This document shows positions 19,372 to 47,594 of a DNA stretch of 64,000 bases, one piece after another (position 1 is the stretch's first letter; each line of letters starts with the position of its first letter). Made by a program: the position numbers and the translations under genes. Source of the stretch: an uncultured bacterium (lineage in GTDB: Bacteria > Patescibacteriota > Minisyncoccia > CAIUEV01); NCBI GenBank assembly GCA_937952315.1, contig CALFZX010000010.1, forward strand, positions 5,047-69,046. The letters are read 5' to 3'. The notes beneath the pieces are model-generated. The model did no database searches. It was not told the origin of the DNA and saw only the letters and a list, made by a program, of their open reading frames with translations.

Positions 19372-19375
19372 AGCG

Positions 19376-19645
19376 ATGAAAAAAACTGCTAAATTGGGCG
19401 GGATAGTGGACCGAGGAGGTAACAGCCTAGAGAATAAAACGGGCGCTTGGGCTTCAAAAATAGCTTTTATTGATCAAGAAAAATGTATTAAGTGCCAGCA
19501 ATGTATCCTTTTTTGTCCGGAAGGATGCATCGATCTCGGCCCGGACGGAAAGAAAGTGCAAGTTGACGGGAATTACTGCAAAGGTTGCTCCGTCTGCGCC
19601 ACCGAATGCCCCGTCAAAGCGATCTCAATGAAACCCAAAAAATAA
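19376..19645 (+). CDS. porD: Pyruvate/2-oxoacid:ferredoxin oxidoreductase delta subunit (2x[4Fe-4S] ferredoxin)
   Basis: Two CxxCxxCxxxCP motifs ('CIKCQQCILFCP' and 'CKGCSVCATECP') and a 'KTGAW' N-terminus, as in PorD. Confidence 0.8.
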   Translation: MKKTAKLGGIVDRGGNSLENKTGAWASKIAFIDQEKCIKCQQCILFCPEGCIDLGPDGKKVQVDGNYCKGCSVCATECPVKAISMKPKK

Positions 19646-19659
19646 TTTAAATCACCCCT

Positions 19660-20847: not shown

Positions 20848-20855
20848 TTGCTTTA

Positions 20856-23800
20856 TTAAACTTTGATTTTTAATCTTTCTCTTTTTTCCTCCTCTTCACC
20901 GATTAATGTCGCAAAAAGTACCGGCACGATCATCAGAGTAAAAAATGAAGACAAGCTCAAGCCGAAAATAATTGTTCCGCCAAGCGCTTTCCAGAGTTCG
21001 TTGGAAAGAGTGATCGGAATGATACCGAAAATTGTGCAGATTGAGGTGATAAAGATAGCCTCCAACCTTGATTTCCCGGCATCAACAATAGCTTCTTGAA
21101 AAGGAATATTGCTCCCCAAATTCAAATTTATTTTATCAATTAAAATAATCGCATTTTTGACCACAATCCCGAATAGAGCCAAAATTCCGATCAAACCGGG
21201 AAAACTTAAATTGATTCGAAAAATCGCTAAACCGATGAAAACCCCGATTAGCGCTAGAGGGAAAGTAGCCAGAACGATTAAGGCTTTTTTGAAGGAGTTA
21301 AATTGAATAATCATTGTTGAAAAGATCAAAAGACCGGCCACAATCATAGCTTTAAGAATTGATATCACCGACTCCGCATTCTGTTCGTTCTCTCCTCCGT
21401 AAACAATCTCGTAACCGGTCGGTAAAGTGTACTGCTCCTTCAGTTTTTTCTGAAAATCGGCTAGAACTTGATTCGGTCGCGTTTTCCCGCTGACTCCGGC
21501 CGTTAGGGAAACGGTTCGTTTCTGATCGGTTCGGGTGATGGTCTCTACCGAAGGCTTAAGCTCTACTTTCGCTATATCCTTTAGAAAAATTGCTGTTCCG
21601 GTCGGGCTTAAAATTTGCAAATTTTGCAAAGACTCCAAATCGGGCACCGCTCTTTTGTCAAAACGAGCCACGATTTTTATCTCCTTGTTATCTCTGATTA
21701 TTTTGCTCACTTCCATCTCTGAGACGGCCATTCGCAAAAAAGAAGAAACGGCCGGAATACTCAAGCCGGAGACCTTCAGTCTTTCTCGATCAATCAAAAA
21801 AGTATATTCAGCCGGTGCTTCTTTCAAGGAAATATCTTCGTTGATAACCCCGTCAATTTGGCTGAGAATTCTCTTTAGATCATTTGCCACCTTGTCTAAG
21901 ACTTGAAGATCTTCACCCTCGATTCTCGCCTCAAAAGCCGAGCCGGAAGGTGGCCCACCGCTCGGAGATTCGACTGTTATTTCCGCGTTTTTAATGCTTT
22001 TTAAATCGTTTCGAATCTTATCCGCCAAATCGTAAGAAGTAATCTCGCGACTGTTTTTATCAATTAAATTCATTGTCACAGAAGCTAAATTGGAGGAGGA
22101 GCTTCCCATTCCATCCCCTCCGCCTTGGCCGACCAAAGTTGAAAATTTTTCTATTTCCGGATATTTTAACAATTGAGCCTCAACTTTTTCCACGATTTTA
22201 TTGGTTTCTTCCAGTTTCAAGCCGGACGGCGCTTCGAGATTAAGATAGAGGCTGTCCTCGTCGGAGACGGAAAAAAATTCGGTTGCCACAATGCCGGACG
22301 CCGGCAAAGAGGCTGAGCCGAGAAAGAGGAGCAGAGTTCCGATCAAAGCTCCCCAGCGCCTTTTTCTCGTGGCTAAGATATAGCGAAGTTGCTTTTCATA
22401 GAGCGGTAAAATTATATTTATATTTGTAATTCCGGAGAAAATTCTTTGCCAAAAAGTTTTTTTTCTTCCTTCCGCCCGATCGGCTAATTTTTCTTTGATC
22501 ATTTCCGGATTTTCCCACTCGAGATTGACTAATTTTTCACTAGCCATCGCTCTTTTTCTTCCTTCCGCCAGATACCATCTCAAAAAGACTACCGCTACTG
22601 TCAGAGCGATAAAACCGATTGAGAAGCCGGCAGTATTCCGCATTAAAACAGCCGTAGCGGTGCCCCCCAAAATAATTATCGAAAAAATTCCGAAGAAAAA
22701 GCTACGAGTAAATCTTATGCGCTCCAAGATAGCAGCCATCGGATGATTTATCATTAAAGCGATCAACAGAGAGGCGGTCAATGTCACCGAGACAGTAATC
22801 GGGATCGATTTAATAAATTCTCCGATGATACCGGTTGCTAAGAGTAGGGGCAAAAAGGCCCAAACTGTTGTCAAAGTGGTCGTTACTAAAACCCATTTGA
22901 AGTCGCGCAACACTAAAATTACCGCCTGCTCCGGTGTAAATTTACCGGTTTTCAAATATTGTTTAGTCGCCGAAACAACAACAATAGCGTCATCAACGAG
23001 CAAGCCGAGCGATAACAGCAATGAAAAAATCGAAAGGAAATTTAAGCTTATCCCCGCCAATTCCATCACTCCAAAACTAATAAAAAAAGTCAGGGGAATG
23101 GCCATACCGGCCACAAAAGCCTCCTTGACACCAACCAATAGAATAAGCACCAACGAGACTAAAAATAAAGTTAGAAAAAAGTCGTGTGTCAGCTGATCGA
23201 AATCTTCTTTAATCATTTCAGACATGTCGGTCGTATAGGCGTATTCCATGCCTTCCGGAAAATTACCGCTCATCGTCTCGATTTTTTGTTTAGCCTCATC
23301 AATCGTTTTGAGAATCGATCCGCCGGTTTTTTTTATTAAGCTGATAGAAACCGCGTTTTTCGGATCTTCTCCTCCGGTGGAGAATCGTGAATAGACTGTC
23401 TTTTCAATCGCTTTTTCGCGGACATCCGCCAAGTCTTTCAAATAAACAATTGCCCCGTTTTCCGTTGAAATAATCGGTAAATTCTTGATCTGATCGGCAT
23501 TCACAAGCCGAGCATCGGATTTAATGGCATAATTATATTTTTCACCGGAAAAACTACCGGCCGGCATAAGTAAATTACCGGAAGCGATTATTTGATTAAC
23601 CTGTTCGGCGGAGATTTTGAAACTTTCCAGCTTTTCCGGATTATAAGCGACTTCGATCTCTCTTTCCTCCCCGCCTGAAACTTTAACTTCCCGCACGCCA
23701 GCAATCTTTTCCAGTTCATCTTGAAGTTCTTCAGCTTTTTGTCTCAGCGTAAAACCATCATATCTACCGGCCAATTCGATATTGAAAATCGGACGATCGT

Positions 23801-27921: not shown

Positions 27922-30900
27922 ATGGCTTTTTCAAAAAAAATCAGCTCGACAGGAAGAGAAGAATTCCAGGAGATCACTCTTAGAGACACAACCAGACGGT
28001 TAAGTCGCATTTCCGAGGAGGAGCAAGCGGCCATCAAAGCGGCCGGTTTGGGTTTACCCTATCTTGATTTGAATATTTTTCCCGTAGGCACTGAAACTAT
28101 TAGCACTTTGCCGGAGGAAGTTTCGCGCTTCGGACAGTTGGTTGTTATTCAAAAAGCGGGACGAGACTTAAAAGTCGGCGTCGTTGAACCGAAAGATCCA
28201 AAAACACAGGAAGTGCTCGAAAAAATGGAAAAAGATGAAGGCTACAATTCTAGAATTTACATTATTTCTAAAACTAGCCTAGAAAGAGCTTTGGATCGCT
28301 ACAAACAGGCGAATCTCTCGACTTCGCTTGAAGAAATGATGCTAACGCTGTCCGGTAAAGACTTGGAAAAATTTGAAAACGACATTAAAGAACTGGTTGA
28401 CCTCAAAAAAAGAATTCGAGAGTTACCCACCACGGAAGTTTTGAATGTAATTATCGCCGGCGCTATCAAATTGGAAGCGAGCGATGTTCACACAGAACCG
28501 CAAAAGGAAGATGTTCGAATCCGCTATCGTTTAGACGGTGTGCTTCACGATATTGTCCACATTCCCTATAATTTCTATCCCTATGTCCTTTCTCGCGTTA
28601 AGATGCTTTCCGGCTTGAAATTAAATATTCGAGACCGAGCTCAGGATGGTCGTTTTACTATTAAAACTAATTCTTCCGAAATTGATGTAAGAGTTTCCAT
28701 CCTGCCGGGTAATTATGGTGAAAATGTGGTGATGAGGTTGCTTAATCAAGATTCAGTTGGCTTAAAATTGGAGGATTTGGGTTTGCGAGGTCGCGCCTTT
28801 GATCAGTTGATTAGCCAGCTAAACAAGCCCAATGGTATGATCCTAAATACCGGACCGACCGGATCGGGAAAAACAACAACGCTTTATGCCTGCCTTATGC
28901 GCATTAACAGTCCGGATACGAAAATTATTACGATTGAAGACCCGATCGAGTACCGTCTGCCCGGTATCTCGCAAACACAGGTGCACAAAGAAAAAGGCTA
29001 TGATTTTTCTAACGGTTTGCGCTCAATTGTCCGTCAAGACCCGGACGCTATTCTGGTGGGAGAAATCCGAGATGAGGAAACGGGGGATATTGCGGTTCAC
29101 GCCGCTCTGACCGGTCATTTGGTTTTTTCCACTTTGCACACGAATTCAGCTTCCGGCGCTGTTCCTCGTTTGATTGACTTGGGTATTCGACCGACCTTGA
29201 TTGCTCCTTCCGTTAATTGTGTCATTGCTCAAAGATTGGTGCGAAAACTATGCCCTTATTGCAAAGAAGAGTATGTACCCGCCAAAGAAACACTGGAAAG
29301 TATGGGTCGTTTTCTCTCGATTATTTCGCCTAAGGCGGGAGTGGAAATTCCTAAAAATATTACTACTCTTTTTCGAGCCAAAGGTTGTCCTCGCTGTAAG
29401 GGTATCGGTTATAAAGGACAAATGGGCATTTTTGAAGTTTTTGAGATCAACAAGGAAACGGAAAAATTAGTTTTGGAGATGGCGCCGGCCACCGATCTCC
29501 TGGCGGCGGCGATGGAATCCGGTATGATTACCATGCTTCAAGACGGAATTTTAAAAGCCTCGGAAGGCATCACTTCAATGGACGAAGTGGAAAGAACGAC
29601 GGGCGCCGGCCAGTATCTGCAGGAGGTTTATGAGAAAATCATGACCCAACTTCTCTCCTTGCAATTGAAAATAGACAAAAAACAGATCGGGGAAACGCTT
29701 GAATGCGGTTTTGACGCTCAAAAAATGGCATCACTGATCCAAAAGGCGAGCAATAAGGAAATCCTCAATTATGTGGTCGCGGGCGGATTGGCCTTCGATG
29801 CGGGCGACATTCATATGGAACCGCAGGGAGATCTGATCAAAATTCGTTATCGTATTGACGGTATTTTGGAGGACATAACGGATATTAAGGCTCAGGACTA
29901 TTTACCAATTTTATCGCAGATCAAGCTACTTTCAGGTTTTAAAACCGATTCTCACGAGGCGGTCCAGGACAGTCGTTTCGGCATCGCTTTAGAAATGCAA
30001 ATCAACGACATTGCCGACACTAAAATCGATGTCAGAGTTTCAATCATTACGGGCGGTTACGGAGAGACGGTAGTGTTGAGATTGCTTCATAAATCGGCTC
30101 GCGCTTTAGAGGTGGAGAAAATCGGTTTCAGACCGCAATTATTGGAGAAATTATTGCGAGAAATTGAAAAACCGAACGGCATTATTCTGAATACCGGACC
30201 GACCGGATCGGGAAAAACAACGACGCTATATTCCTTGCTTAATCGTCTGAACAAACCGGAAGTTAAAATTATCACCGTAGAAGATCCGATAGAATATCGT
30301 TTGGCGGGGATTCTCCAGACCCAAGTTTCCACGGAGGAAGGTTATGATTTCGCCAACGCTTTAAAGGCACTTCTGCGTCAAAATCCGGATATAATGATGA
30401 TTGGAGAAATTCGCGATGAGGAAACGGCTAAAATAGCCATTCAAGCTTCTCTAACCGGGCATTTGGTGCTTTCCACTTTGCACACTAACAGCGCGGTAGC
30501 TTCTATTCAAAGGTTGATCAATATGAATATTGATCCTACCGATATCGCCACTTCCACTAACGCTATGATGGCGCAGAGACTGCTCCGAAAGCTTTGCCCT
30601 CATTGTCGAAAAGAGGTGTTACCGAGTGATCAAGACAAACGCAAACTTGAGGAGGTGCTAGCCACCGTCAGCAAATCTTCCGGCGTCGAAGTGCCTTCAA
30701 AAATTGAAAAATTGTTTGAGCCGGTCGGTTGCGAAAAATGTAAGAATCTCGGCTATTCCGGTCGAATCGCTGTGGCGGAGATAATGGCAATGAGTCCGAC
30801 ACTTGAAGAGATGGTCTCCCGTTTTATGATCACTTCGGAGATAGAACGACAGGCGATTAGTGAAGGGATGCTGACGATGACTCAAGATGCGGCGATTCGC

Positions 30901-30954
30901 GTGGTGAACGGCGAAACAAGTATCGCCGAAGCGGCTCGATCGACGGAGCTTTAA
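27922..30954 (+). CDS. Tandem-fused double PilB/GspE-type secretion ATPase (two complete T2SS/T4P ATPase modules in one 1010-aa polypeptide)
   Basis: Each half carries Walker A 'LNTGPTGSGKTTTLY', Asp box, Walker B 'GEIRDEET', His box 'TGHLV(F/L)STLHTNSA' and a tetracysteine zinc motif (CPYC...CPRC in the first half, CPHC...CEKC in the second). Confidence 0.85.
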   Translation: MAFSKKISSTGREEFQEITLRDTTRRLSRISEEEQAAIKAAGLGLPYLDLNIFPVGTETISTLPEEVSRFGQLVVIQKAGRDLKVGVVEPKDPKTQEVLEKMEKDEGYNSRIYIISKTSLERALDRYKQANLSTSLEEMMLTLSGKDLEKFENDIKELVDLKKRIRELPTTEVLNVIIAGAIKLEASDVHTEPQKEDVRIRYRLDGVLHDIVHIPYNFYPYVLSRVKMLSGLKLNIRDRAQDGRFTIKTNSSEIDVRVSILPGNYGENVVMRLLNQDSVGLKLEDLGLRGRAFDQLISQLNKPNGMILNTGPTGSGKTTTLYACLMRINSPDTKIITIEDPIEYRLPGISQTQVHKEKGYDFSNGLRSIVRQDPDAILVGEIRDEETGDIAVHAALTGHLVFSTLHTNSASGAVPRLIDLGIRPTLIAPSVNCVIAQRLVRKLCPYCKEEYVPAKETLESMGRFLSIISPKAGVEIPKNITTLFRAKGCPRCKGIGYKGQMGIFEVFEINKETEKLVLEMAPATDLLAAAMESGMITMLQDGILKASEGITSMDEVERTTGAGQYLQEVYEKIMTQLLSLQLKIDKKQIGETLECGFDAQKMASLIQKASNKEILNYVVAGGLAFDAGDIHMEPQGDLIKIRYRIDGILEDITDIKAQDYLPILSQIKLLSGFKTDSHEAVQDSRFGIALEMQINDIADTKIDVRVSIITGGYGETVVLRLLHKSARALEVEKIGFRPQLLEKLLREIEKPNGIILNTGPTGSGKTTTLYSLLNRLNKPEVKIITVEDPIEYRLAGILQTQVSTEEGYDFANALKALLRQNPDIMMIGEIRDEETAKIAIQASLTGHLVLSTLHTNSAVASIQRLINMNIDPTDIATSTNAMMAQRLLRKLCPHCRKEVLPSDQDKRKLEEVLATVSKSSGVEVPSKIEKLFEPVGCEKCKNLGYSGRIAVAEIMAMSPTLEEMVSRFMITSEIERQAISEGMLTMTQDAAIRVVNGETSIAEAARSTEL

Positions 30955-30996: not shown

Positions 30997-32781
30997 ATGT
31001 TTATCAGCGACAAACAATTAAAAGGATTTTTACTGGAATCGGAAATCGTTCCCGCTTCTTTGTTGGAGGAAGCTTCTCTGGAGGCGGAAGATACCAAAAT
31101 AAAACTCGGCACCGTTCTGATGGAAAAAGGTCTGATTCAGGAAGAGCAGCTAAGAAAAACTTATGCTTACTTGCTGGGGATACCCTTTGTCAATCTTGAA
31201 AATCAGTATGTTCCCAAGGAAGTTTTGACAATTATTCCCGAGCCTATTGCTCGCAAACACAACATTGTAGCTTTCGAAAAAGAAGGAACAAAAATTAAAG
31301 TGGCAATGCTTGATCCGGAAGATCTTCAAACGATTGATTTTATTCGCAAGAAGACCCAAAGCAAAATTCTTCCCTGTCTGACTTCGGAAAAATCAATTAA
31401 ACATATTCTGACCCAATATCAAAAGTCTCTCAAAGCCGAATTTGGCGAAATAATCAACGAAAATGTCAAGTTTGCTTCAATCGCCGACAGGGCGAAAAAT
31501 CCGGTTAGGGACGATAAAAATTCGATCGGCAAAGAGATTGATCTTCTCAAAAAAAGAGCGGAGGAACTACCGGTAATCAAAATTGTCGATGTTCTGTTGA
31601 AGCACGCAATTTTACAGCAGGCCAGCGATATTCACATTGAACCGGAGGAAAAAGAAGTAGTGGTGCGTTATCGCATTGACGGTCTTCTGCACGATGTTAT
31701 GTTTTTGCCCAAAGAGGTTTTACCGGCCATCATCGCTCGAATAAAGGTTTTGGCCAATTTAAAACTAGATGAACATCGATTACCTCAAGATGGTCGTTTT
31801 AAGATCGAGAATAGCGATTATAAGTTCTCTTTTCGTGTTTCAATTTTGCCCATAATGGACGGAGAAAAAATCGTGATGAGATTGCTTAATGAATCGTCCA
31901 AGGGGCTAACTTTGGAACAGTTAGGCTTTAGAAATCGAGCTTTGGAGGCACTCCAAAAAAGTGTGCATAAATCGCACGGAATGATTTTAGTGACCGGACC
32001 AACCGGATCGGGAAAAACGACTACTCTTTACACGGTAATGGACATTCTCAATACCAACCAAGTCAATATTAGCACTGTCGAAGATCCGATTGAATATCGA
32101 ATGCCCCGAATCAATCAAACTCAAATTAATGCCAAGATAGGGCTAACTTTTGCAGCCGGTTTAAGGGCCCTTCTGCGTCAAGATCCGGATATTATCATGG
32201 TAGGAGAAATTCGAGATGAAGAGACAATGCATATTGCCATTAATGCCGCTATGACCGGGCATTTGGTGCTTTCAACCTTGCACACCAACAGTGCCTCCGC
32301 TACAATGCCTCGCTTGTTGGATATGGGGGCGGAACCTTTCTTGTTGGCATCGACTCTCAATATCGTTATTGCTCAAAGATTGGTACGCAAGATTTGTTCG
32401 GAGTGCAAAGTGGAATATCGTCTCAAGAAGGAAGAAATTGAGGAGTTGGGACGAAAAGTCGACTTAGCGGACCTCTTGGAAGCAATGAAACGGGAGAAAA
32501 TAATTCGACCCGAAGTGGCAAGCTGGGAGGAAATTATTTTCTATCGCGGTCAAGGGTGCAAGCGATGTGCCGAATCAGGCTATAAGGGCCGAATGGGTAT
32601 TTACGAAGTAATAGAAATGGACGATGATATCAGGGCGCTGGTTTCGAAGCGAGCTGATGCGGCCGAAATTGAGGCTGTAGCCATTGAGAAAGGCGTTCTA
32701 ACTATGCTTCAGGACGGATTCATCAAGTCGGCGGAGGGTCTGACTACCATTGAGGAAGTGCTGAGGGTAACTCAGGAATAA
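30997..32781 (+). CDS. pilB: Type IV pilus assembly / type II secretion ATPase PilB/GspE
   Basis: GSPII_E N-terminal domain, Walker A 'GPTGSGKTTTLY', 'GEIRDEET', 'TGHLVLSTLHTNSA', and tetracysteine 'CSEC...CKRC'. 594 aa. Confidence 0.88.
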   Translation: MFISDKQLKGFLLESEIVPASLLEEASLEAEDTKIKLGTVLMEKGLIQEEQLRKTYAYLLGIPFVNLENQYVPKEVLTIIPEPIARKHNIVAFEKEGTKIKVAMLDPEDLQTIDFIRKKTQSKILPCLTSEKSIKHILTQYQKSLKAEFGEIINENVKFASIADRAKNPVRDDKNSIGKEIDLLKKRAEELPVIKIVDVLLKHAILQQASDIHIEPEEKEVVVRYRIDGLLHDVMFLPKEVLPAIIARIKVLANLKLDEHRLPQDGRFKIENSDYKFSFRVSILPIMDGEKIVMRLLNESSKGLTLEQLGFRNRALEALQKSVHKSHGMILVTGPTGSGKTTTLYTVMDILNTNQVNISTVEDPIEYRMPRINQTQINAKIGLTFAAGLRALLRQDPDIIMVGEIRDEETMHIAINAAMTGHLVLSTLHTNSASATMPRLLDMGAEPFLLASTLNIVIAQRLVRKICSECKVEYRLKKEEIEELGRKVDLADLLEAMKREKIIRPEVASWEEIIFYRGQGCKRCAESGYKGRMGIYEVIEMDDDIRALVSKRADAAEIEAVAIEKGVLTMLQDGFIKSAEGLTTIEEVLRVTQE

Positions 32782-38197: not shown

Positions 38198-38225
38198 TTA
38201 GTTTGCCGAAATTTTTAATAACCAA

Positions 38226-38252
38226 CGAGAGGTGCTTAGGCACCTCTTTTTG
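38226..38252 (+). terminator. Rho-independent terminator
   Basis: 'agaggtgc-ttag-gcacctct' followed by 'ttttgg', 30 nt after the stop of the preceding gene. Confidence 0.65.
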
Positions 38253-38345
38253 GTATATCTCCGTCTGGACAATAACCTTTAATAAAGATATATTGATTCC
38301 CAATCCATGCTCCTTGCCAAAATATTTTATCGATAGGAGAAAAAA

Positions 38346-38621
38346 ATGGTTCCGACTGTCGCCGATATGGAAAGAAGCGCCAGATATCATCTGCTTGCTT
38401 CAGTTTTCTCAGTCATCGTTTTCCCAATTTTGTTAATCGGCTCAGTTGTTATTTTCAGCTTGAGTTGGATTAGCCCGACGGTTTTTTGGTGTGCTCGGTT
38501 AGCAATGGCCGTCTTGGCGACGGGTATTGCCTTTGCCTATTTCAAAGCGGGCAATAAGTCGAAAGTTCCTCGTTGGTCGGTTGTCTCTTTGGTCATAGTT
38601 GCAACTCTTGTCATAAAATAA
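38346..38621 (+). CDS. Hypothetical small 3-transmembrane membrane protein
   Basis: 91 aa, preceded by 'aggagaaaaaaatg'. Three hydrophobic helices. Its GC content is higher than its surroundings. Confidence 0.35.
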   Translation: MVPTVADMERSARYHLLASVFSVIVFPILLIGSVVIFSLSWISPTVFWCARLAMAVLATGIAFAYFKAGNKSKVPRWSVVSLVIVATLVIK

Positions 38622-38750
38622 AAAAAACATTATTCTGTAAATGCACATCAGCACCTTCCAAAAAATTTAACAAGCACATTCCAACAAAACAACTCAACCA
38701 GCACATTCCCTCAACCCAGACCCTTTCTCAATCCCTCATCACAACCCCAA

Positions 38751-38786
38751 CCCCTCGCCGCGCGCCAGGGGTTTTTCTTTTTTTGG
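38751..38786 (+). terminator. GC-rich hairpin plus T-tract (terminator-like)
   Basis: 'cccctcgccgcgcgccagggg' followed by 'tttttcttttttt'. It follows a ~110-nt C/A-rich tract. Confidence 0.45.
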
Positions 38787-38807
38787 AGTCTTTATTTCTG
38801 ATCAATC

Positions 38808-38862
38808 TCCAAATCTACCTGCCTGCCGCCTGCCTGCCGGTAGGCAGGGTAAGCAGGTATTT
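38808..38862. repeat. GC-rich imperfect palindrome
   Basis: 'tacctgcctgccgcctgcctgcc|ggtaggcagggtaagcaggta' contains direct 'cctgcc' repeats and inverted arms. Its GC content is far above the local background. Confidence 0.5.
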
Positions 38863-38972
38863 AGGTTAAGCCCTCTCTTCCCCCATTTTTTGTTTGGGAG
38901 TAGAGTGAGAGTGAAATGCAAAACAAGAGTGATTGTTAGCTTTATCTTCTAAAAACTTTTTAGGAATAAAAG

Positions 38973-41900
38973 ATGAAAAATTTCATTACCAACAGTGGGG
39001 CGGATAATCTTAAAGATCGCTTGCTGGAACTAATAAAAAGCAGCGAGGAGTTAAAATTTTTGGTTGGATTCTTCTATTTCTCTGGGATTAGAGAGCTTTA
39101 CGAAGGATTAAAAAAGAAGCCAGATACCGTCATTAAAGTTCTTGTTGGCCTAAATGTTGATCAATCCAATTTTGGCTTAATTGAATTTTCAGAGAAAGAA
39201 CAGTTATCTGATGAGGAAAAAACTTATAAATTCTTTGAATCGATAAAAAAATCTTTAAACAACGAAAGTCTTGATAACCAAGAATTTTATGAACAGGTAA
39301 GATTTTTTATTAAGCTTATTCAAAAAGACAAATTAATTATCCGTAAAACTTTTAAGCCTAATCACTCCAAACTTTATCTTTTTAAGTTGGATGAAAGTCA
39401 AGTAGGTCAAAGAAATTTATTTATTACAGGATCGAGTAATTTAACTAGTGCCGGTCTTTCTACCCAAAATGAATTCAATGTAGAAATAGGCGATTATGGT
39501 TTTGGGGATGCCGAGCAGTATTTTGAAGATCTTTGGCAAGAAGCAGTGAAGATTACCGAATTTGATGATCTTAAAAAGAAACTCGTTCAAGTTATTGAAG
39601 CAGAAACATTAGTAAAAGATATTTCACCATTTGAAGCTTTTTGTTTAGTTTTAAAAACATATCTTGATTCGTTCGAGCAAAAAGAAATTAGCGATTCTTT
39701 GATTAAAATTCTAGAAAAAAATAATTATAAGCCGTATCAATATCAGCTAGATGCGGTTAGGCAAGCATTGGCCATAATAGAAAAAAATAACGGAGTTATT
39801 GTAGCTGATGTAGTCGGTTTGGGAAAAACAATTATTGCCTGTGCCATAGCGAAACAGCTGAAAAAACGCGGGCTGATTGTTTGTCCCCCGGGTCTTATAG
39901 GTGATAGTAACAAAAATTCTGGCTGGAAAAAATATACGGAAGAATTTAGCCTTTATGATTGGGAAGTTCGTTCATCGGGTGATCTGGGGAAAATATTGGA
40001 GTTCGTTAAAAAGGCTACGGACATTGAAGTTATAATAGTTGATGAAGCTCACAGTTTTAGGAATCAAGACACGAAAAACTATGAGCTTCTGAAAAATATT
40101 TGTCGTGGAAAACAAGTGATTTTATTGACTGCCACCCCTTTTAACAACCGTCCAGCGGATATTTTAGCTCTTTTAAAACTTTTTATAACTCCTAAAAAAT
40201 CCTCGATTACATTAGAAAACAATTTGGTTGATCAATTCAAGGGTTTCAAAGGTATGTTTGAGAAGCTTGGGCATATTAGTAAATATTGGAGTTCCACTGA
40301 CGAATCTAAAAGAAATCAAGCTATAAATTATTATAAAGCATTATTCGAAGAAGAAACCGTTGATTTGAAAAAAGTCGCCGTAAGAGCCCGCTATCTTTCT
40401 AAGCAAATTAGAAATGTTATTGAGCCGGTAACAATAAGGCGTAATCGACTTGATTTGCAGAATAATCCTTATTACAAAAATGAAGTCAAAAATCTTGCAA
40501 AAGTGGAAGATCCCATAGAGTGGCCTTTCTATTTAACAGTTGAACAGTCCAGATTTTATGATGAAGTCATAAAAAATTATTTTGGCGAGCCAGAGGAGGG
40601 GGGAAGGTTTAAAGGCTCAATTTACAGACCCTTTGAATACGAAAAAGTTGTTGAGGACAAGATGGGTAAAGATGATAATCGTCAATTTATTCAGCAAAGA
40701 AATTTGTTTGACTTCATGAGACGATTGATCGTGAAACGATTTGAAAGTTCTTTTGGGTCATTTGCGCAAAGCATCAAAAACTTCAAGAAAATTACGGAAA
40801 GTAGTCGAGATTTTATTAAAAAAACCGGAGAGTATATTCTAGATAGAGCACTTTTGGAAAAAATCTATGAATTAGAGGCTGAAGATATTGAAAAATATCT
40901 CTTAGAGTATGAGGAAAAAATAAAAAAAGGTGAATACCCCAAAAACCACAAACGATATAAATTAAGTGCATTTAAGCACAAAAATGCTTTTCTTCGGGAC
41001 ATTGATTCGGATCTAAAATTGTTTGACGAAATATTATCAGAGCTAAACAGAATGAGTCTTATTAAAAATGATCCGAAAACCGCTTGCTTGTTGAAGCACC
41101 TGAAAGAAGAATTAAACAAAAAGCCACAAAAGGATGAGCCAAAAAGAAAAATTATTATTTTTTCTGAATATATTGATACTGTTAAGTATCTTGAAAAAGC
41201 ATTAGAGAAAACATTTGAAGACAGAATTTTAGTAGTAGACGGTGGCTTGTCAGTAGCAAAAATCAATCAAATCAACAAAAATTTTGACGCCTCATACAAT
41301 AGTAAAGAAAATAATTTTGATATTTTATTGACATCCGACAAAATTTCAGAGGGTTTTAACTTGAACAGAGCGGGAATGGTCATTAATTATGACATTCCAT
41401 GGAATCCGGTTCGGGTTATTCAGCGGCTTGGTCGTATCAATCGTATTAGTAAAAAAGTTTTTAATGAGCTTTATATTGTAAACTTCTTTCCGACTGAACA
41501 AGGTGCGACACTGGTTCAATCGCGTGAAATTGCTGCCAACAAAATGTTTTTAATCCACAATACTTTGGGCGAGGATTCAAAAATTTTTAATATCGACGAA
41601 GAACCAACCCCCGCAGGACTTTTTAACCGAATTCAACGAAATCCAGATCAGCAAGAAAAAGAAGGATTTTACACTAAAGCGTTAAACCACTATTTAAAAA
41701 TAAAGAAAGATAATCCGGAGTTGATTGCTGGCTTGAAGAAATATCCTCCAAGAATCAAGGTAGCAAAAATTTACACAGAAAATGAGCTTTTGGTTTTTTT
41801 CAAAAAGGGGAGACTCTATGTCAGTGGAGCAAAAACCGACACGGAAAAGATTGAAATATTTCAAGCAAGCCTTGAAGATGTCTTTGAAAAAATTGTTTGC

Positions 41901-42293
41901 CAATCGAACGAAAAAGCACAAAACTGGAACACAGATCAATTTTGGAAAGCATACGATTCTATCCAAACATACAAAAACTTTCGTTTAGGTTCCGTTAGCG
42001 AACAAAGTCTTGAGTCAAAAGCTCTTAATAGCCTCGATTCTCTTATTTTAAGCAACACAGAAAGTCTTATCCCCCACAAGGATTTTCTGAGAATGTTGAA
42101 AGAAGATATTTTATCATACGGTACATTGGCCGATTATACTTTGCGTCGAATTATCGGATTGAAAGAAAACTCTGTCAAAGAAATTAGGGCATTAAAAAAA
42201 GAATTAGGAGAGGACTATCTAGCCAAAGAAAAGGATCGCCAGAAAGAGCAGAAAAAAGAAGTTATTATCGCTATTAATAATCTTAAAAAATGA
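38973..42293 (+). CDS. SNF2-family helicase with N-terminal PLD-like nuclease domain
   Basis: N-terminal '...NHSKLYLFKLD...ITGSSNLT' matches the HxK...D...GSxN phospholipase-D motif. Helicase motifs: I 'VADVVGLGKTIIA', II 'IVDEAHSFRN', III 'LLTATPFNN', V/VI 'DIPWNPVRVIQRLGRINRIS'. Confidence 0.85.
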   Translation: MKNFITNSGADNLKDRLLELIKSSEELKFLVGFFYFSGIRELYEGLKKKPDTVIKVLVGLNVDQSNFGLIEFSEKEQLSDEEKTYKFFESIKKSLNNESLDNQEFYEQVRFFIKLIQKDKLIIRKTFKPNHSKLYLFKLDESQVGQRNLFITGSSNLTSAGLSTQNEFNVEIGDYGFGDAEQYFEDLWQEAVKITEFDDLKKKLVQVIEAETLVKDISPFEAFCLVLKTYLDSFEQKEISDSLIKILEKNNYKPYQYQLDAVRQALAIIEKNNGVIVADVVGLGKTIIACAIAKQLKKRGLIVCPPGLIGDSNKNSGWKKYTEEFSLYDWEVRSSGDLGKILEFVKKATDIEVIIVDEAHSFRNQDTKNYELLKNICRGKQVILLTATPFNNRPADILALLKLFITPKKSSITLENNLVDQFKGFKGMFEKLGHISKYWSSTDESKRNQAINYYKALFEEETVDLKKVAVRARYLSKQIRNVIEPVTIRRNRLDLQNNPYYKNEVKNLAKVEDPIEWPFYLTVEQSRFYDEVIKNYFGEPEEGGRFKGSIYRPFEYEKVVEDKMGKDDNRQFIQQRNLFDFMRRLIVKRFESSFGSFAQSIKNFKKITESSRDFIKKTGEYILDRALLEKIYELEAEDIEKYLLEYEEKIKKGEYPKNHKRYKLSAFKHKNAFLRDIDSDLKLFDEILSELNRMSLIKNDPKTACLLKHLKEELNKKPQKDEPKRKIIIFSEYIDTVKYLEKALEKTFEDRILVVDGGLSVAKINQINKNFDASYNSKENNFDILLTSDKISEGFNLNRAGMVINYDIPWNPVRVIQRLGRINRISKKVFNELYIVNFFPTEQGATLVQSREIAANKMFLIHNTLGEDSKIFNIDEEPTPAGLFNRIQRNPDQQEKEGFYTKALNHYLKIKKDNPELIAGLKKYPPRIKVAKIYTENELLVFFKKGRLYVSGAKTDTEKIEIFQASLEDVFEKIVCQSNEKAQNWNTDQFWKAYDSIQTYKNFRLGSVSEQSLESKALNSLDSLILSNTESLIPHKDFLRMLKEDILSYGTLADYTLRRIIGLKENSVKEIRALKKELGEDYLAKEKDRQKEQKKEVIIAINNLKK

Positions 42294-43972
42294 TTATTGA
42301 GGATTTAATGAAGATTTTAGCTCAACCTTCTGAAAATGAGAATGTTGAGTTTAAAGAAGCAAAGAATAGTTTTTCAGTACTAGGAAGGGACAATAAACGA
42401 GGTAAAAAAAATCGTAAGTCGATTTATGGCTATTCTGTTGCCATCGGCAACGAAGGTGGCGGACACTTAATCTTAGGAGTTAAGGACAAAATAAATAAAA
42501 AAACCGGTAGACGAGATATCGTTGGCACAAAGGCCATTCAAAACATAACCCAAACCAAAGAAAAATTGTACGAGGCTTTAGGAAGAAGAGTCGAAATTCA
42601 AACCCTAAAGACCCCGGAGGGGACTGTTCAGGTGATAGAAATACCAGCACATCCGGTAGGGGGAACTTTTAAATTTTACAATGTTCCATTGATGAGAAAT
42701 GGTGAAAATCTAGTTCCTATGGATGACGAGACTCTCAAAAAAATATTAACTGAAAATAGAGAAGACTTTTCTGCAAAATTAAATCTCTCAGCAAATTTTG
42801 ATGATTTAGACCCAAAATTACTTAGAATTTTAAAGGACAAGTATATCCTAAAATCGGGGAACAAGGAGCTAAAAGAAGTTTCTCATAAAGATATTTTGCA
42901 AAAATTACTTTTAGTAAGAAAAGATAAAATAACAAATGCTTGTTTGTTGTTAGTAGGAAAAGAAGATTCTTTGGCTAGATTAATTCCCAACCATGAAATA
43001 TTTTTAGAATGGCGTTCAGATGAGCACAAACTTGAATTTGAAAATCGCTACACAACAAGAAAAGCCTATCTATCAGTCGAAGCTGAAATATGGAAATATG
43101 TTAACGCTCGTAATGTTCGCGTTCCTTTTAAACAGGGCTTTTTTGAGATGGATATTTGGGCATACGATAAAAATAGCGTAAGAGAATCGGTTTTGAATGC
43201 TTTTGCTCACAGAGAATATGATAATCGGACAGAGCCTGTCTATGTGCGCTTGTCTCCGAGCAATTTGTCCATAAAAAGTCCCGGAGGTTTTGTCTCCGGT
43301 GTGTCAGTAGAAAATATTTTAGATGTTGAAGGAAAGTGGAGAAATCCATTTTTGATGGATGTACTGAGCCGCATAGGTTTAGTGGAAAGGGCTGGAATCG
43401 GACTGGATCGAATTTACAAAAAAACTATTTCTGATGGAAAGGGTTTGCCGAATTTTGACGGGACTGACAATGATCAAGTTATTTTAAATATTCCCGCCAT
43501 TGTTAAAGATCCCGGCTTTATTTATTATTTAGAAAAAATTAATCAAAAAAACCAGCTTTTTTCATCAACAAAGGATTTTATCGAGTTGGAAAAAATAAGA
43601 GGAACCGGAATCCCTGAGGATAAGAATAGACTAAAATATTTTCTGAAAAACAATATTATAGAGAAAATTAATCATGGCAGGGGTACCAGGTATATCCTAG
43701 CAAAGAATTTTTATGAATTTATTGAGGGTAAAGGCGAATACACAAGAAAAAAATGGCTTAGCAAAGAACAGCAGAAAGAAGTGCTTTTAAATTATTTTAT
43801 TCAGCATAAAGAAGGCAGAATGTCGGACTTCAAGGAGCTTTTTGAGGATAAGTTGAATAAAATTCAAATTAATATTTTACTAAACAAACTCAGAGACGAA
43901 GAAATGATTTATTTCGACGGTAAGGAGAGATCAAGCAAAGCATACTGGCGCTTAAGGAAAAATACAGAGTAA
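42290..43972 (+). CDS. AlbA_2/Schlafen-like putative DNA-binding ATP-binding protein (divergent-AAA / HATPase_c_4-type regulator)
   Basis: N-terminal 'ENVEFKEAK...YSVAIGNEGGGHLILGVKD' matches the AlbA_2 signature. Its start overlaps the upstream stop as ATGA. Confidence 0.6.
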   Translation: MIIEDLMKILAQPSENENVEFKEAKNSFSVLGRDNKRGKKNRKSIYGYSVAIGNEGGGHLILGVKDKINKKTGRRDIVGTKAIQNITQTKEKLYEALGRRVEIQTLKTPEGTVQVIEIPAHPVGGTFKFYNVPLMRNGENLVPMDDETLKKILTENREDFSAKLNLSANFDDLDPKLLRILKDKYILKSGNKELKEVSHKDILQKLLLVRKDKITNACLLLVGKEDSLARLIPNHEIFLEWRSDEHKLEFENRYTTRKAYLSVEAEIWKYVNARNVRVPFKQGFFEMDIWAYDKNSVRESVLNAFAHREYDNRTEPVYVRLSPSNLSIKSPGGFVSGVSVENILDVEGKWRNPFLMDVLSRIGLVERAGIGLDRIYKKTISDGKGLPNFDGTDNDQVILNIPAIVKDPGFIYYLEKINQKNQLFSSTKDFIELEKIRGTGIPEDKNRLKYFLKNNIIEKINHGRGTRYILAKNFYEFIEGKGEYTRKKWLSKEQQKEVLLNYFIQHKEGRMSDFKELFEDKLNKIQINILLNKLRDEEMIYFDGKERSSKAYWRLRKNTE

Positions 43973-44075
43973 CTGTGTTTTTTCGAATAATTTTAATTAT
44001 TTTGGCTTAATAAAGCCAAATGATCAATAACCTAAAATACAGACCAAATACAGTTTTAAAATTAATTAAGAATCA

Positions 44076-47000
44076 ATGAGCGAATCCAGGCAAATTCTAG
44101 AAACTATAATTAATGATTTTTCCGTTGATAAATTTAGCCGGTTTTTTCGGGAAAAAAATCGCAATTTTGTTGTGCGAGAAGAAAATTACACTCGTTACGA
44201 TGATGATAATTTTAAGGATGGATTGAAAATCGGAGAAATAAATTTTTCTGAAATTGAGAAAATTATTGTTTGCTCTTTTAAAGTCAAAAATAGTTTATCT
44301 GAACGATCGGGCAAAAGAGCCCAATATGAAAAAGCTAAAAACATATTAAAATCAAACGAAAATCGCATCTTTTCTGCCGGTATTTTTATTTTTTATGATA
44401 AAGATGGCCACTTCCGCTTTTCTCTTGTCTATCCTGAGAGCATAGGCACAAAAAGACAGTGGAGTCACTTTAAGCGATTTACATATTTTGTTAATAAGGA
44501 ACTAACCAACAAAACTTTTTTGAAGCAGATTGGGGAGAAAAAGATTGAATCCGTTGATGAAATCAAAGAAGCTTTCTCAATCTCCGCGGTTACAAACTTG
44601 TTCTATGATGATTTTTTCAAGATATACGATACGATTATTCAGGAAACAAAAAAAATCAATGATATAGATGACGACAACTTATCGAGAGAATTCGTTCTTC
44701 TTTTTGCCATAAGAACTATTTTTCTCGGCTTTATCCAAAAGAGAAAATGGCTAGGTGGTGACGAAAAATTTATTGAAAATTTTTATAGAGAGTATTCAAG
44801 CTCAAACAAAAAGAACGAATTTTATTCAAACTGGCTCTGTCCTTTATTTTTTGAAGCGCTGAATTCAAGTCCCGGTCATAAAGTTGAGTACGGAAAAAAC
44901 AATTTTTCAAAAGAAACCGAACTGAAATTGCAAATGGCTCCTTTTTTGAATGGCGGGCTTTTTAAGGAAAAAAGAGGCTATGACAATAACGGTTGGATTA
45001 TTCCGGACGAACAGATAAAATCTTTTTTTGAATTTCTTTTTTCGCACAGCTTTACGATAGAAGAAAATGCTCTTGACGATGAGGATCTACAGCTTAATCC
45101 GGAGTTCTTGGGAATTATTTTTGAAAGACTTGTCAACAAAGCTGATGGAGCAGTCTATACACAAAGAATGGAAGTTGATATAATGTGTCGATGGAGCCTA
45201 ATCAAATGGTTAGAAAAAAATCTCGATTCATCCATTAGCAAAAAAAATCTTTATGAACTTTTTTTTAGGGAAAGCGGGGAGGATGAAGATGAGAAAAAAG
45301 GAAGTTTCTCAAAAAAGGAGGCGATGATGATTCTTGAAAAACTGGAGCAACTTTCTATTTGTGATCCGGCGGCGGGATCGGGAGCTTTTCTGGTTGGAAT
45401 GATGCAAGTTTTAGATGAAGTCGAACAATCTTTAAAGGAGCGTTACGGATTAAATGGGAGAAATGTTTTTGAAAGAAAAAAACAAATTATTAAAAACTCT
45501 CTTTACGGTGTCGAAGCCAAAGAATGGGCGGTTTGGATCTGCCAACTAAGGCTTTGGCTTTCTTTGTTTATCGATACGCCCGAAGAAATGAAAAATTCAA
45601 TGGAAGCAATTTTGCCGAGTTTAGATTTCAAGGTTCGAAGAGGCGATTCTTTGGTTCAAAGAGTCGGTTCAAAGAGCTTTCCGGTCGCGGGTAGAAATTT
45701 AAGTTTGAGCACGAATAACAAAATAAAAATAACAAAACTCAGAAAATATAAAATCGATTATTTCGACAATAAAATCAAGCTGCTAAAAAATGATTTCGAT
45801 GTCTGCGCTCACCGCGAATTATCAATCTATGAAAGTATTATTGATGAAGAAATCAAGACAAAAAAAGATGAAATTAAAAAAGAGAAAAATATAAAAATAT
45901 CTGAGACAATGACGCTGCTGCCCTCTTTAGGCTATCTGCAAGAACAACAACAAGCCACTCTTCAATTGGATAATAAAGAAAAAATAGAAAGATTAGAAAA
46001 GGAAATTAAAGACTTACTAGAACAAAAAGAATTATTAAAAAAAGGCAAACCATTGGTTTGGAACATAGAATTCGCTGATATTTTTTGGGGCGATAAGAAA
46101 GGCTTTGATATTGTTATCGGGAACCCTCCCTATGTTCGTCAGGAATCAATTGAAGATCCGATGGGAAAAGTTAAAGATAAAAAAGAGTATAAAAAATATC
46201 TTCAAGAGATGGTACGGCTTGATTTCCCCAATGATTTTCCACCAAAAAAGAAAATCAACGCCCAATCGGATCTTTATACTTATTTTTATATTCGCGGATT
46301 AAAAATTCTTAATTCTCAGGGAGTTCACGCCTTCATCTGCTCCAATTCTTGGTTGGATGTCGGCTACGGAACTTGGCTTCAAGAGTTCTTGCTTAAACGC
46401 TGCCCAGTTGATTTAATTATAGACAATCACGCCAAGCGTAGTTTTGGTGCCGCCGATGTGAACACAATTATTTCGATTATCCATGCTCCTCAAAAAAAAG
46501 TGGATGAAAATCATTTGGTAAAGTTCACGGCCTTCAAAAAACCTTTTGAAAAGGTTATTTTTACGAATAATCTTTTAGAAATAGAAGAGGCTAAGCAAGT
46601 CTTGAACAACGAAAATTTTCGAGTCTATCCGATTTCAATCAAAGATTTGAAGGAGGCGGGAACGGAATATGAAGATAAAACATTGGTTAAGACGGGAAAA
46701 TACGTCGGCGACAAATGGGGCGGTAAATATCTCCGCGCCCCTGATATTTTCTTTACGATTTTGGAAAAAGGAAAGGATAAATTAGTAAAATTAAGGGATG
46801 TGGCGGACGTTCGTTTTGGCATTAAGACTGGTGCCAATGATTTTTTTTATTTGACGAAATCCAAAGCTAAAGAATGGGGAATTGAGGAGGAATTTTTAAA
46901 GCCGGTCATCAAGAGTCCGAGAGAGTGCAAAAGTATTTTAGTCAATCCGAAGGATTTGAAATATAAAATTTTTATGTGTAACAAAAGCAAAGAAGAGCTC

Positions 47001-47594
47001 AAAGGAACAAACGCTTTGAAGTATATTGAGTGGGGAGAGGTGAAGGGCTTTGATGAGCGTCCAAGCTGTGGAAGTAGACGAATGTGGTGGAATTTAGGAC
47101 TGGTTGATTCTAAAATTGTGTACCCATCGACATATAATCCTGTATTTAAAATTTTTTTTAATACAGAAAAATATCCAGTTGATAAAGTATTCTACGGCAT
47201 TGAGTCAAATAAACCAGAGAACTTAATTGTTTCAGTTGTCAGCTATTTATTTACTTTACAAACAGAAGTTTATGGATATGCACTAGTCGGTGGCGGAGGA
47301 TTATTTATGACAGTAGAAAATCTTGGTCGCATCCTTGTTTTTTATGACAAAAAAATAAAAAACGATCCTTCAGTGTATAGTAAGATTCGGAAATCAATCT
47401 TTGAAGAATGTGGAATCGACCCGAAGTCTGAGATTCCGATTGAGGAGCAGGAGCCGAATCCGTTACCTGATCGGGCGGAGTTGGATAAAATTGTTTTTGA
47501 TGCGCTGGGATTAACCACAGAAGAACGCAAAGAAGTTTATCGGGCTGTTTGCCGGTTGGTTTGGAACCGCATCAGTAAGGCGAAGAGTGTATAA
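44076..47594 (+). CDS. Type IIG/Eco57I-family N6-adenine DNA methyltransferase, possibly with N-terminal PD-(D/E)xK endonuclease
   Basis: Motif I 'DPAAGSGAFLVG', 'LYGVEAKEWAVWICQLRLWLSL' (Eco57I/PglX-type), and motif IV 'GNPPYVRQ'. About 500 aa of C-terminal target-recognition-like region. The N-terminal 'DDD...EIEKIIVCSFKVK' may be a nuclease core. Confidence 0.85.
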   Translation: MSESRQILETIINDFSVDKFSRFFREKNRNFVVREENYTRYDDDNFKDGLKIGEINFSEIEKIIVCSFKVKNSLSERSGKRAQYEKAKNILKSNENRIFSAGIFIFYDKDGHFRFSLVYPESIGTKRQWSHFKRFTYFVNKELTNKTFLKQIGEKKIESVDEIKEAFSISAVTNLFYDDFFKIYDTIIQETKKINDIDDDNLSREFVLLFAIRTIFLGFIQKRKWLGGDEKFIENFYREYSSSNKKNEFYSNWLCPLFFEALNSSPGHKVEYGKNNFSKETELKLQMAPFLNGGLFKEKRGYDNNGWIIPDEQIKSFFEFLFSHSFTIEENALDDEDLQLNPEFLGIIFERLVNKADGAVYTQRMEVDIMCRWSLIKWLEKNLDSSISKKNLYELFFRESGEDEDEKKGSFSKKEAMMILEKLEQLSICDPAAGSGAFLVGMMQVLDEVEQSLKERYGLNGRNVFERKKQIIKNSLYGVEAKEWAVWICQLRLWLSLFIDTPEEMKNSMEAILPSLDFKVRRGDSLVQRVGSKSFPVAGRNLSLSTNNKIKITKLRKYKIDYFDNKIKLLKNDFDVCAHRELSIYESIIDEEIKTKKDEIKKEKNIKISETMTLLPSLGYLQEQQQATLQLDNKEKIERLEKEIKDLLEQKELLKKGKPLVWNIEFADIFWGDKKGFDIVIGNPPYVRQESIEDPMGKVKDKKEYKKYLQEMVRLDFPNDFPPKKKINAQSDLYTYFYIRGLKILNSQGVHAFICSNSWLDVGYGTWLQEFLLKRCPVDLIIDNHAKRSFGAADVNTIISIIHAPQKKVDENHLVKFTAFKKPFEKVIFTNNLLEIEEAKQVLNNENFRVYPISIKDLKEAGTEYEDKTLVKTGKYVGDKWGGKYLRAPDIFFTILEKGKDKLVKLRDVADVRFGIKTGANDFFYLTKSKAKEWGIEEEFLKPVIKSPRECKSILVNPKDLKYKIFMCNKSKEELKGTNALKYIEWGEVKGFDERPSCGSRRMWWNLGLVDSKIVYPSTYNPVFKIFFNTEKYPVDKVFYGIESNKPENLIVSVVSYLFTLQTEVYGYALVGGGGLFMTVENLGRILVFYDKKIKNDPSVYSKIRKSIFEECGIDPKSEIPIEEQEPNPLPDRAELDKIVFDALGLTTEERKEVYRAVCRLVWNRISKAKSV

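Follow-up and report, generated by a model that had tools for sequence, protein, structure and literature searches.

Prokaryotic Schlafens (pSlfns), their Ex4(E/D)xK motif, their classes and their cleavage of tRNA were described by Perez Taboada et al. in 2026 (PMC13056530), who assigned 19.2% of 5,930 pSlfns to a HisKinase-HTH class. The Schlatpase supradomain, in which a Schlafen (SLFN) nuclease domain is joined to a GHKL-type ATPase, its ATP-driven tetramerisation and its exchange with restriction–modification (RM) systems were described by Kuzmenko et al. (preprint 10.64898/2026.05.29.728809). According to one preprint, NCBI nr holds about 60,000 Schlafen plus GHKL proteins, mostly with a C-terminal helix-turn-helix (HTH); proteins of this threefold composition form the largest class of bacterial Schlafens. 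Here we describe one of them, encoded at 42290–43972 on the forward strand of a 64,000-nt stretch of DNA from an uncultured bacterium (contig CALFZX010000010.1, positions 5,047–69,046; hereafter, the window), where its gene lies between those for a helicase and a DNA methyltransferase; the helicase, Schlafen and methyltransferase genes, their domains and the two secretion ATPase genes described below are on the same strand.

Proteins with a Schlafen domain, a histidine kinase-type ATPase domain and a winged helix-turn-helix (wHTH) have been recorded within BREX/BR loci of at least 1017 taxa and proposed to act there as a "backup suicidal effector" (PMC12839542); more than 50% of defence-associated Schlafens are linked to RM or other nucleases (PMC13462974). 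RorSlfn5 and Cash are tRNases activated by a trigger, the former having an Ig-like and the latter a Csx15 sensor (PMC13056530, PMC13462974), and in RzAgo the binding of ATP to the GHKL domain leads to tetramerisation, by which a bilobed Schlafen nuclease is rebuilt that cleaves tRNA and brings about abortive infection (10.64898/2026.05.29.728809). Papers of 2025–2026 thus already describe both the architecture and its occurrence within RM, BREX and Hma loci, and the window gene is a further member of this group. On balance, we favour the view that it encodes a self-contained Schlafen enzyme inserted exactly where the two genes of an RM-like module meet, as a guest rather than a subunit.

With the Schlatpase-HTH or HisKinase-HTH proteins the window protein shares PF04326, PF13749, a C-terminal HTH, the Ex4ExK motif, the N-box and a setting in defence or RM loci; its architecture is no different from theirs, although this copy stems from a Patescibacteria-like genome of low GC and its host context, an HKD-SNF2 gene with an Eco57I-like methyltransferase gene, was not found named in PMC13056530 or 10.64898/2026.05.29.728809. 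It resembles the BREX/BR backup effectors in protein type and in being embedded, in the same orientation, in an operon of methyltransferase and helicase/nuclease genes, and some of its more distant relatives sit between HmaA and HmaB (as in locus L042), as in the BREX-related loci of PMC12839542; the window operon, in contrast, is a minimal two-gene HKD-SNF2 plus Eco57I-like module that lacks the DUF499/BrxC ATPase, PglZ and DUF3780. RzAgo, a Schlafen–prokaryotic Argonaute protein with a homologous SLFN plus GHKL supradomain, is the sole mechanistic model and the only Schlatpase for which ATP-dependent oligomerisation is known, but its sensor is a guide-RNA-loaded Argonaute core, whereas the window protein ends in two predicted wHTH domains, with no guide system evident. 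Mammalian SLFN11 and SLFN13, antiviral tRNases gated by an ATPase and by nucleic-acid binding, share the homologous nuclease lobe and the Ex4ExK site (PDB 5yd0); they carry two lobes per chain and a superfamily 1 helicase ATPase, while the window protein has one lobe and a GHKL ATPase. PrrC and RloC, anticodon nucleases linked to type I RM loci, are similar by analogy, each being a latent tRNA-cutting enzyme inside an RM operon that serves as a second line of defence. Their folds, however, are unrelated to that of the window protein: an ATP-binding cassette (ABC) ATPase with a HEPN-like nuclease there, GHKL with Schlafen here, and neither of the PrrC/RloC domains was found in the window protein in Pfam, NCBIfam and PADLOC scans. 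A physical guard tie to the RM enzyme is established for PrrC; for the window protein it would be hypothetical.

Domains, fold and start of the Schlafen protein

The gene encodes a protein of 560 aa with an ATG start, which we analysed by means of Pfam, homologue searches, an AlphaFold2 (AF2) model and Foldseek. An earlier note on this DNA had called it an AlbA_2/Schlafen protein with a HATPase_c_4-like domain, and Pfam agrees, with both scores above their cut-offs: SLFN_AlbA_2 (PF04326) matches aa 15–144 (42332–42721; 35.9 bits against a gathering score of 25.3), and HATPase_c_4 (PF13749) follows on the same polypeptide at aa 316–396 (49 bits against 26). The nuclease domain opens with the catalytic motif E15-x4-E20-x-K22 (E15-NENV-E20-F-K22, 42332–42355). 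The core of the GHKL ATP-binding domain, supported by Pfam, the alignment with PDB 3lmm and Foldseek, spans 43184–43477 and starts with E299...N303...H307 (43184–43210), whose E299 and N303 we take to be the Glu and Asn of a Bergerat-fold N-box, which serve ATP/Mg binding and hydrolysis; the Gly-rich lid motifs G332, G369 and G371 come after it.

Among the candidates scored, 625 Schlafen homologues were found at E ≤ 1e-5. Conservation was counted in 90 collected family members, 87–89 of which cover the residue columns concerned. E15 and E20 are present in all 87 aligned sequences and K22 in 86 of 87, while E299 and N303 (E299-x3-N303) are present in 89 of 89. Since these Schlafen and GHKL catalytic residues are near-invariant, whatever the genomic context, we regard the protein as an enzyme (effector) rather than an adaptor.

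The earlier note had also suggested looking for a wHTH in the C-terminal half. Two tandem winged helices are in fact seen there in the AF2 model (aa ~405–475 and 490–558, 43502–43963), in each of which DSSP gives the pattern H-H-H-beta-beta, and Foldseek matches this part locally to the wHTH domains of Z-alpha, PadR, MarR and ROK-repressor proteins; no Pfam model matches these predicted domains. The model, built on the family alignment A1, has a mean predicted local distance difference test score (pLDDT) of 86.4. Over its full length it matches PDB entry 3lmm, DIP2311 of Corynebacterium diphtheriae (Foldseek, E 4e-26), to which the GHKL region (aa 272–388) also aligns in a sequence search of the PDB (E 1e-15), although identity is only about 19–20% and 3lmm is a structural-genomics protein with no assigned function. 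The N-terminal domain matches those of 2kyy (E 2e-4) and of rat SLFN13 (5yd0; E 1.5e-3, probability 1.00), and the middle part matches the catalytic domains of histidine kinases and pyruvate dehydrogenase kinases. NCBIfam has no model for the protein, and PADLOC v2 gives only partial matches, to Argonaute-associated models that have the GHKL region in common with it, and does not name the Schlafen family. The window protein is a Schlatpase-HTH-type prokaryotic Schlafen, composed of SLFN, a GHKL ATPase and tandem wHTH domains; that it is a tRNA/RNA endonuclease we infer by analogy with RorSlfn5, Cash and RzAgo.

The helicase ORF (38973–42293) ends with a TGA at 42291–42293, so that the tetranucleotide ATGA (42290–42293) contains both its stop codon and the Schlafen start codon. 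The public gene call for an identical protein (P0001, and likewise the NCBI metagenome-assembled genome (MAG) contig in L114) begins instead at Met7, ATG 42308, which is preceded by GAGG at 42299–42302; with this start, the genes would be separated by a gap of 14 nt and would not overlap. We rejected the Met7 start in spite of its Shine-Dalgarno sequence, as residues 1–6 align with the N-termini of homologues: among 32 aligned family members, the homologues' MTxEELxKLL matches MIIEDLMKIL column for column. Together with the fact that the Schlafen ORF has no start codon upstream of Met7 other than 42290, and that residues 3–10 form a confident helix in the AF2 model, this favours ATG 42290 and hence the overlap, as the earlier note had it. 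Overlaps of 4 nt are the commonest type in bacterial operons, and the ATGA is therefore unremarkable in itself. It implies co-transcription and, probably, coupling of the two genes by termination and reinitiation; the note's further claim of stoichiometric co-expression goes too far, for an overlap of this kind implies coupling but not a fixed stoichiometry. In 13 of 70 related Schlafen-family loci, the gene likewise stands at exactly −4 to its upstream neighbour, whatever the kind of that neighbour.

Distribution of the host module and of the Schlafen relatives

The gene upstream (38973–42293) encodes a protein of 1106 aa in which, as judged by Pfam and PADLOC, an HKD (phospholipase D (PLD)-type) nuclease is fused to an SNF2 helicase. 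Its Pfam domains are PLDc_2, RE_NgoFVII, SNF2-rel_dom and Helicase_C, and the full-length PADLOC candidate model "HKD+Snf2" C3a139 matches aa 12–877, while a sequence search of the PDB retrieved only generic SNF2 remodeller motor domains. Proteins with a single HKD motif, such as Nuc and BfiI, dimerise to form the PLD-type active site; since only one HxK...GSxN motif is present here (NHSKLYLF...GSSNLT), the HKD-SNF2 protein must do so as well. Identification of this protein as DISARM DrmD, DpdE, BrxH or the "phospholipase D anti-phage" protein was considered and rejected, as all of these score far under their curated cut-offs.

The gene downstream (44076–47594) encodes an Eco57I/MmeI-type, gamma-class N6-adenine DNA methyltransferase of 1172 aa, on the evidence of Pfam (Eco57I, MmeI_Mtase, N6_Mtase), PADLOC (type IIG, DrmMI and PglX-like models) and a precomputed M_Eco57I_C match. 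The gamma-class order is evident from motif I (DPAAGSGAF) preceding motif IV (NPPY) after a long N-terminal region, the first 380 aa of which have no Pfam match; a sequence search of the PDB returned nothing at E ≤ 1e-3. Models for type IIG enzyme-methyltransferases and type II methyltransferases span most of the protein, including its C-terminal region (M_Eco57I_C), and its counterpart in locus L104 shows TaqI_C, so that the methyltransferase probably recognises its own target through the C-terminal region, like single-chain type IIG/IIL enzymes. Together, the HKD-SNF2 protein and the methyltransferase resemble a split RM pair that is ATP-dependent and of a type ISP/type III-like kind. The host operon is not a BREX or BREX-related (BR/Hma) system, as it contains no BrxC/DUF499 ATPase, PglZ or DUF3780 and the NCBIfam BREX PglX model scores far under its cut-off (54 against 500); nor is it class 1 DISARM, given that DrmD of NCBIfam matches only the C-terminal half of the helicase (164 bits against 610) and that DrmA and DrmB (DUF1998) are absent from the operon.

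To determine how the host module is built elsewhere, we scanned genomes with the HKD-SNF2 protein. This yielded 22 loci from many phyla, with helicases 50–83% identical to that of the window, of which 17, having at least 1 kb of downstream sequence, were informative. The Eco57I-like methyltransferase gene lies directly 3' of the helicase gene in 12 of these 17 loci, typically with overlapping stop and start codons (ATGAGTGA), and an orthologue of the window Schlafen gene is present in none of the 17. Because of this direct adjacency and the absence of the orthologue, the core host system is taken to consist of two genes; the genomic-context statistics that the earlier note had called for thus speak against a conserved co-occurrence of the Schlafen gene with the helicase and methyltransferase. 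In three further loci of the 17 the junction holds another guest: a DUF3800 protein (L012:13360–14145) or a PDDEXK_3 protein (L013:13456–13836), both of which start at or overlap the helicase stop codon, or, in L009, an at most distantly related AlbA_2 + HATPase_c_4 protein with a Fic-like_C match and a wHTH, which is 28% identical to the window protein over 100 aa only. The helicase/methyltransferase junction is therefore a recurrent, general insertion hotspot. No methyltransferase was found in L022 and L023, in which the helicases are only 50% identical and, in L022, the helicase gene is followed by one for a peptidase M3.

The helicase is unusually conserved, at 66–83% identity, across distant taxa (Methylomirabilis, Smithella, Lentisphaerae, Saccharibacteria, Omnitrophica, Brocadiaceae, Planctomycetota and Cloacimonadota; window 38973–42293 and loci L007–L026), whereas identity of the partner methyltransferases is 33–63%. 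Conservation of the one with variation of the other suggests that the system spread widely and recently by horizontal transfer while its target recognition diversified, the pattern expected of mobile RM systems.

The Lentisphaerae MAG locus L009 (13333–19193) shows a further rearrangement. Its methyltransferase gene is cut down to the first 46 codons (14765–14902, 70% identical to the window's) and the last 25 codons (19107–19193), between which lie an AAA_15/AAA_21 plus DUF3226 pair and a DUF6577 plus AbiEii pair. Other defence cassettes thus seem to have taken the place of the methyltransferase, so that the HKD-SNF2 protein would lack its cognate methylase. Downstream of the AbiEii gene, in some 4.5 kb (18840–23318), the ORFs of both strands are at most 134 aa long.

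We then compared the surroundings of the Schlafen relatives. The closest ones already differ in their neighbours: those with 66% (P0002) and 62% identity (P0010) stand alone among housekeeping genes, adjoining a DNA ligase gene and following a leucyl-tRNA synthetase gene, respectively; one with 61% identity (P0004) lies beside a type ISP-like methyltransferase gene; four with 55–60% identity (P0006, P0021, L029, L030) lie between type III mod and res genes; one with 59% identity (P0018) follows a transposon-split MmeI-like gene; one with 57% identity (P0033) is downstream of a type I RM system with SMODS/SLATT genes; and one with 43% identity (P0075) follows an HSP70/AAA cassette.

Neighbours of the relatives were clustered and annotated by Pfam and PADLOC in 80 metagenome loci, whose Schlafen proteins are 32–58% identical to that of the window. 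About ten of these loci contain the relative within a cassette of HmaA (SNF2 + NOV_C), relative, HmaB (DUF1156) and HmaC (HEPN/DUF499), with all three Hma proteins of L042 recognised by PADLOC at E = 0. Relatives also lie between type III Mod and Res (L029, L030, L110, L113), after type I HsdM (L079, L086, L099, L106), after a type IIG enzyme (L104), by type ISP-like or MmeI-like enzymes (L109, L112) and on their own among housekeeping genes (L001, L111). An HKD-SNF2 plus Eco57I pair near a relative was found only in L064 and L068, among the 80 metagenome loci and nine further contexts; this is a distant pair with another gene order (HKD-SNF2, Eco57I, DUF4145, relative, RhuM). The upstream neighbours (70 scanned, 57 of them co-directional with the Schlafen gene) include eight NOV_C/SNF2, seven N6_N4_Mtase, five N6_Mtase and four Eco57I proteins, and the downstream neighbours (62 scanned) include ten DUF1156, six ResIII, three RhuM, two Methylase_S and two Eco57I proteins, as well as single Mrr and other RM proteins, so that RM components make up at least roughly one-third of the immediate neighbours. 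These RM and Hma neighbours bear out the earlier note's remark that such proteins recur in defence contexts. In a neighbour-joining tree, an Hma-rich and a type III-rich clade are apparent as tendencies, with contexts interleaved, notably in the window's own clade. Because the relatives' contexts vary across RM classes or are solitary, the Schlafen gene is not a dedicated subunit; it is a promiscuous RM-embedded module that also survives alone, and the host module is normally found without it.

One apparent helicase–Schlafen fusion ORF of 1,707 aa (L074), which would have counted as Rosetta-stone evidence, was discarded as an artefact, its N-terminal 1,160 aa being an Arg/Pro-rich, out-of-frame read-through of high-GC DNA. 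In a Bacteroidales MAG (L005:2946–9963), a 43%-identical homologue ends a cassette that otherwise consists of two HSP70-like genes, two genes without annotation and one gene each for an AAA ATPase and a DUF6804 protein, and adjoins a serine recombinase gene; a mobile element may here carry a defence cassette, based on HSP70, that is as yet uncharacterised.

Possible roles of the Schlafen gene

If the Schlafen protein is a guest, its C-terminal wHTH region would read a signal, most likely a nucleic acid, upon which the RNase would be released. By analogy with RzAgo, the protein would be an ATP-gated, oligomerising RNase; its cutting of tRNA would stop translation and so provide an abortive-infection-type second line of defence. 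Embedding in the operon would ensure co-transcription and co-transfer with the first-line restriction system, of which the Schlafen protein would not be a structural part. Several points weigh against this view. In the pSlfn/Schlatpase literature cited, no Schlatpase-HTH member has a demonstrated anti-phage phenotype, and neither of the two constructs that protected E. coli was of the HisKinase type (PMC13056530), a result that the lack of a partner or of a trigger, or an unsuitable set of phages, could explain. RNase activity, ATP dependence and oligomerisation are carried over, by analogy, from homologues with other sensor domains. Moreover, the −4 coupling in 13 of 70 loci and the one-third or more of RM neighbours could reflect a closer functional tie to RM than that of a guest gene, and a protein with two wHTH domains could also be a transcription factor.

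Such a closer tie is the substance of a second explanation, which we regard as possible but rather doubtful: the RNase may depend on its RM partner, either as a PrrC-like guard or as a reader of restriction products. It would then be silenced or signalled by the adjacent ATP-dependent restriction enzyme, and would fire when phage anti-restriction proteins inhibit that enzyme or when the wHTH domains bind DNA ends or single-stranded DNA. PrrC-EcoprrI is an established precedent for an RM-linked tRNase. That the gene is found time and again inside RM operons, of at least five kinds, and that it often has the exact −4 overlap with the upstream RM gene argues for such wiring, as does the second, unrelated Schlatpase-HTH protein at the same helicase/methyltransferase junction in L009, and a similar speculation about RM-linked Schlafens is found in the Cash paper (PMC13462974). 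However, the partners differ even among relatives of 55–66% identity, and the close relatives L001 and L111 have no RM neighbour; it is also difficult to envisage that one surface recognises HKD-SNF2, type III Mod/Res, HmaA and HsdM alike, an objection that a trigger consisting of a DNA product would evade. We hold it similarly doubtful, with about one chance in a few, that Schlatpase-HTH proteins in general are wired to ATP-dependent translocating restriction enzymes, in which case the tandem wHTH could read a common product of restriction (DNA ends, single-stranded DNA or stalled translocation complexes) or the loss of restriction activity. If this were true, the cell would switch from DNA cutting to tRNA cutting, and the repeated insertion exactly between restriction and modification genes, the 4-nt overlap and the occurrence with at least five mechanistically different RM classes would be explained.

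The tandem wHTH domains, the frequent annotation of the family as regulators or DNA-binding proteins and the structured spacer ahead of the methyltransferase gene (see below) would also suit a transcription regulator, analogous to a controller protein, that times methyltransferase against nuclease expression, with the Schlafen and GHKL parts serving only as ligand-binding or oligomerisation modules. This is very unlikely: near-invariance of the Ex4ExK and N-box residues in the 90 family members is unexpected for a pure regulator, in other loci the host module does without the Schlafen gene, and homologous Schlatpase modules are active tRNases. Very unlikely, too, is the role that the earlier note had entertained, in which the protein would belong to the HKD-SNF2/methyltransferase system as an integral subunit, for sensing or specificity, and be kept in fixed proportion by translational coupling. 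The ATGA overlap and the predicted, DNA-binding-type wHTH domains would agree with it, but 12 of 17 loci have the two-gene module without a Schlafen gene and no locus has the orthologue, the methyltransferase fits single-chain type IIG/M_Eco57I_C models through its C-terminal region and probably recognises its target by itself, relatives occur in other RM classes or alone, and both the nuclease and the ATPase site are conserved; distribution largely refutes this role. We therefore consider "probable defence RNase nested in an RM-like operon" an apt annotation, rather than regulator, RecG-like helicase or specificity subunit.

The question of how such proteins are activated, and of what the restriction partner contributes, is general to RM-embedded Schlatpase-HTH proteins and not specific to this locus. 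The window nevertheless offers a clean and compact natural example, with three genes, a small genome and an insert-free ancestral arrangement available in relatives, and is suited to asking whether RM-embedded Schlafens act alone or need their restriction partner.

Further features of the island and the window

Between the Schlafen and methyltransferase genes is a spacer of 103 nt (43973–44075), for which a terminator-like match and the folding energy indicate two hairpins at 43956–44025. The first (43956–43984) has a 12-bp, AT-rich stem that extends across the Schlafen stop codon, and the second is TTGGCTT-AATA-AAGCCAA; the 146-nt stretch that contains them folds at −28 kcal/mol (z = −3.2). 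Insert-free related loci have no such spacer at the helicase/methyltransferase junction. The hairpins could be a terminator or attenuator that parts Schlafen from methyltransferase expression, or an insertion scar.

The three-gene block is low in GC (0.33–0.36, against 0.39–0.44 in the flanks), and uniformly so, the Schlafen gene showing no difference in GC composition from its two neighbours that would be a sign of recent insertion. The island is flanked by a sigma factor-like and unannotated ORFs upstream and by a class I aminoacyl-tRNA synthetase gene downstream, and the identical three-gene arrangement is present in the public MAG contig L114. Promoter-like matches in the region (37, against 27.9 ± 4.7 in shuffled sequence) do not usefully exceed expectation and were set aside. 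In the roughly 770 nt upstream of the helicase gene (38198–38972) no ORF is convincing, a possible 91-aa membrane peptide (38346–38621) being the sole candidate; a strong, bidirectional terminator-like hairpin lies near the start of this stretch (38227–38248), which presumably forms the left end of the island and contains its promoter.

Elsewhere in the window, an ORF of 1010 aa (27922–30954) comprises two complete GspE/PilB-type secretion ATPase units in tandem, an unusual fusion in which the Walker A motif GPTGSGKTTTLY occurs twice. It is followed directly, on its 3' side, by a PilB-like gene of normal length (594 aa, 30997–32781).

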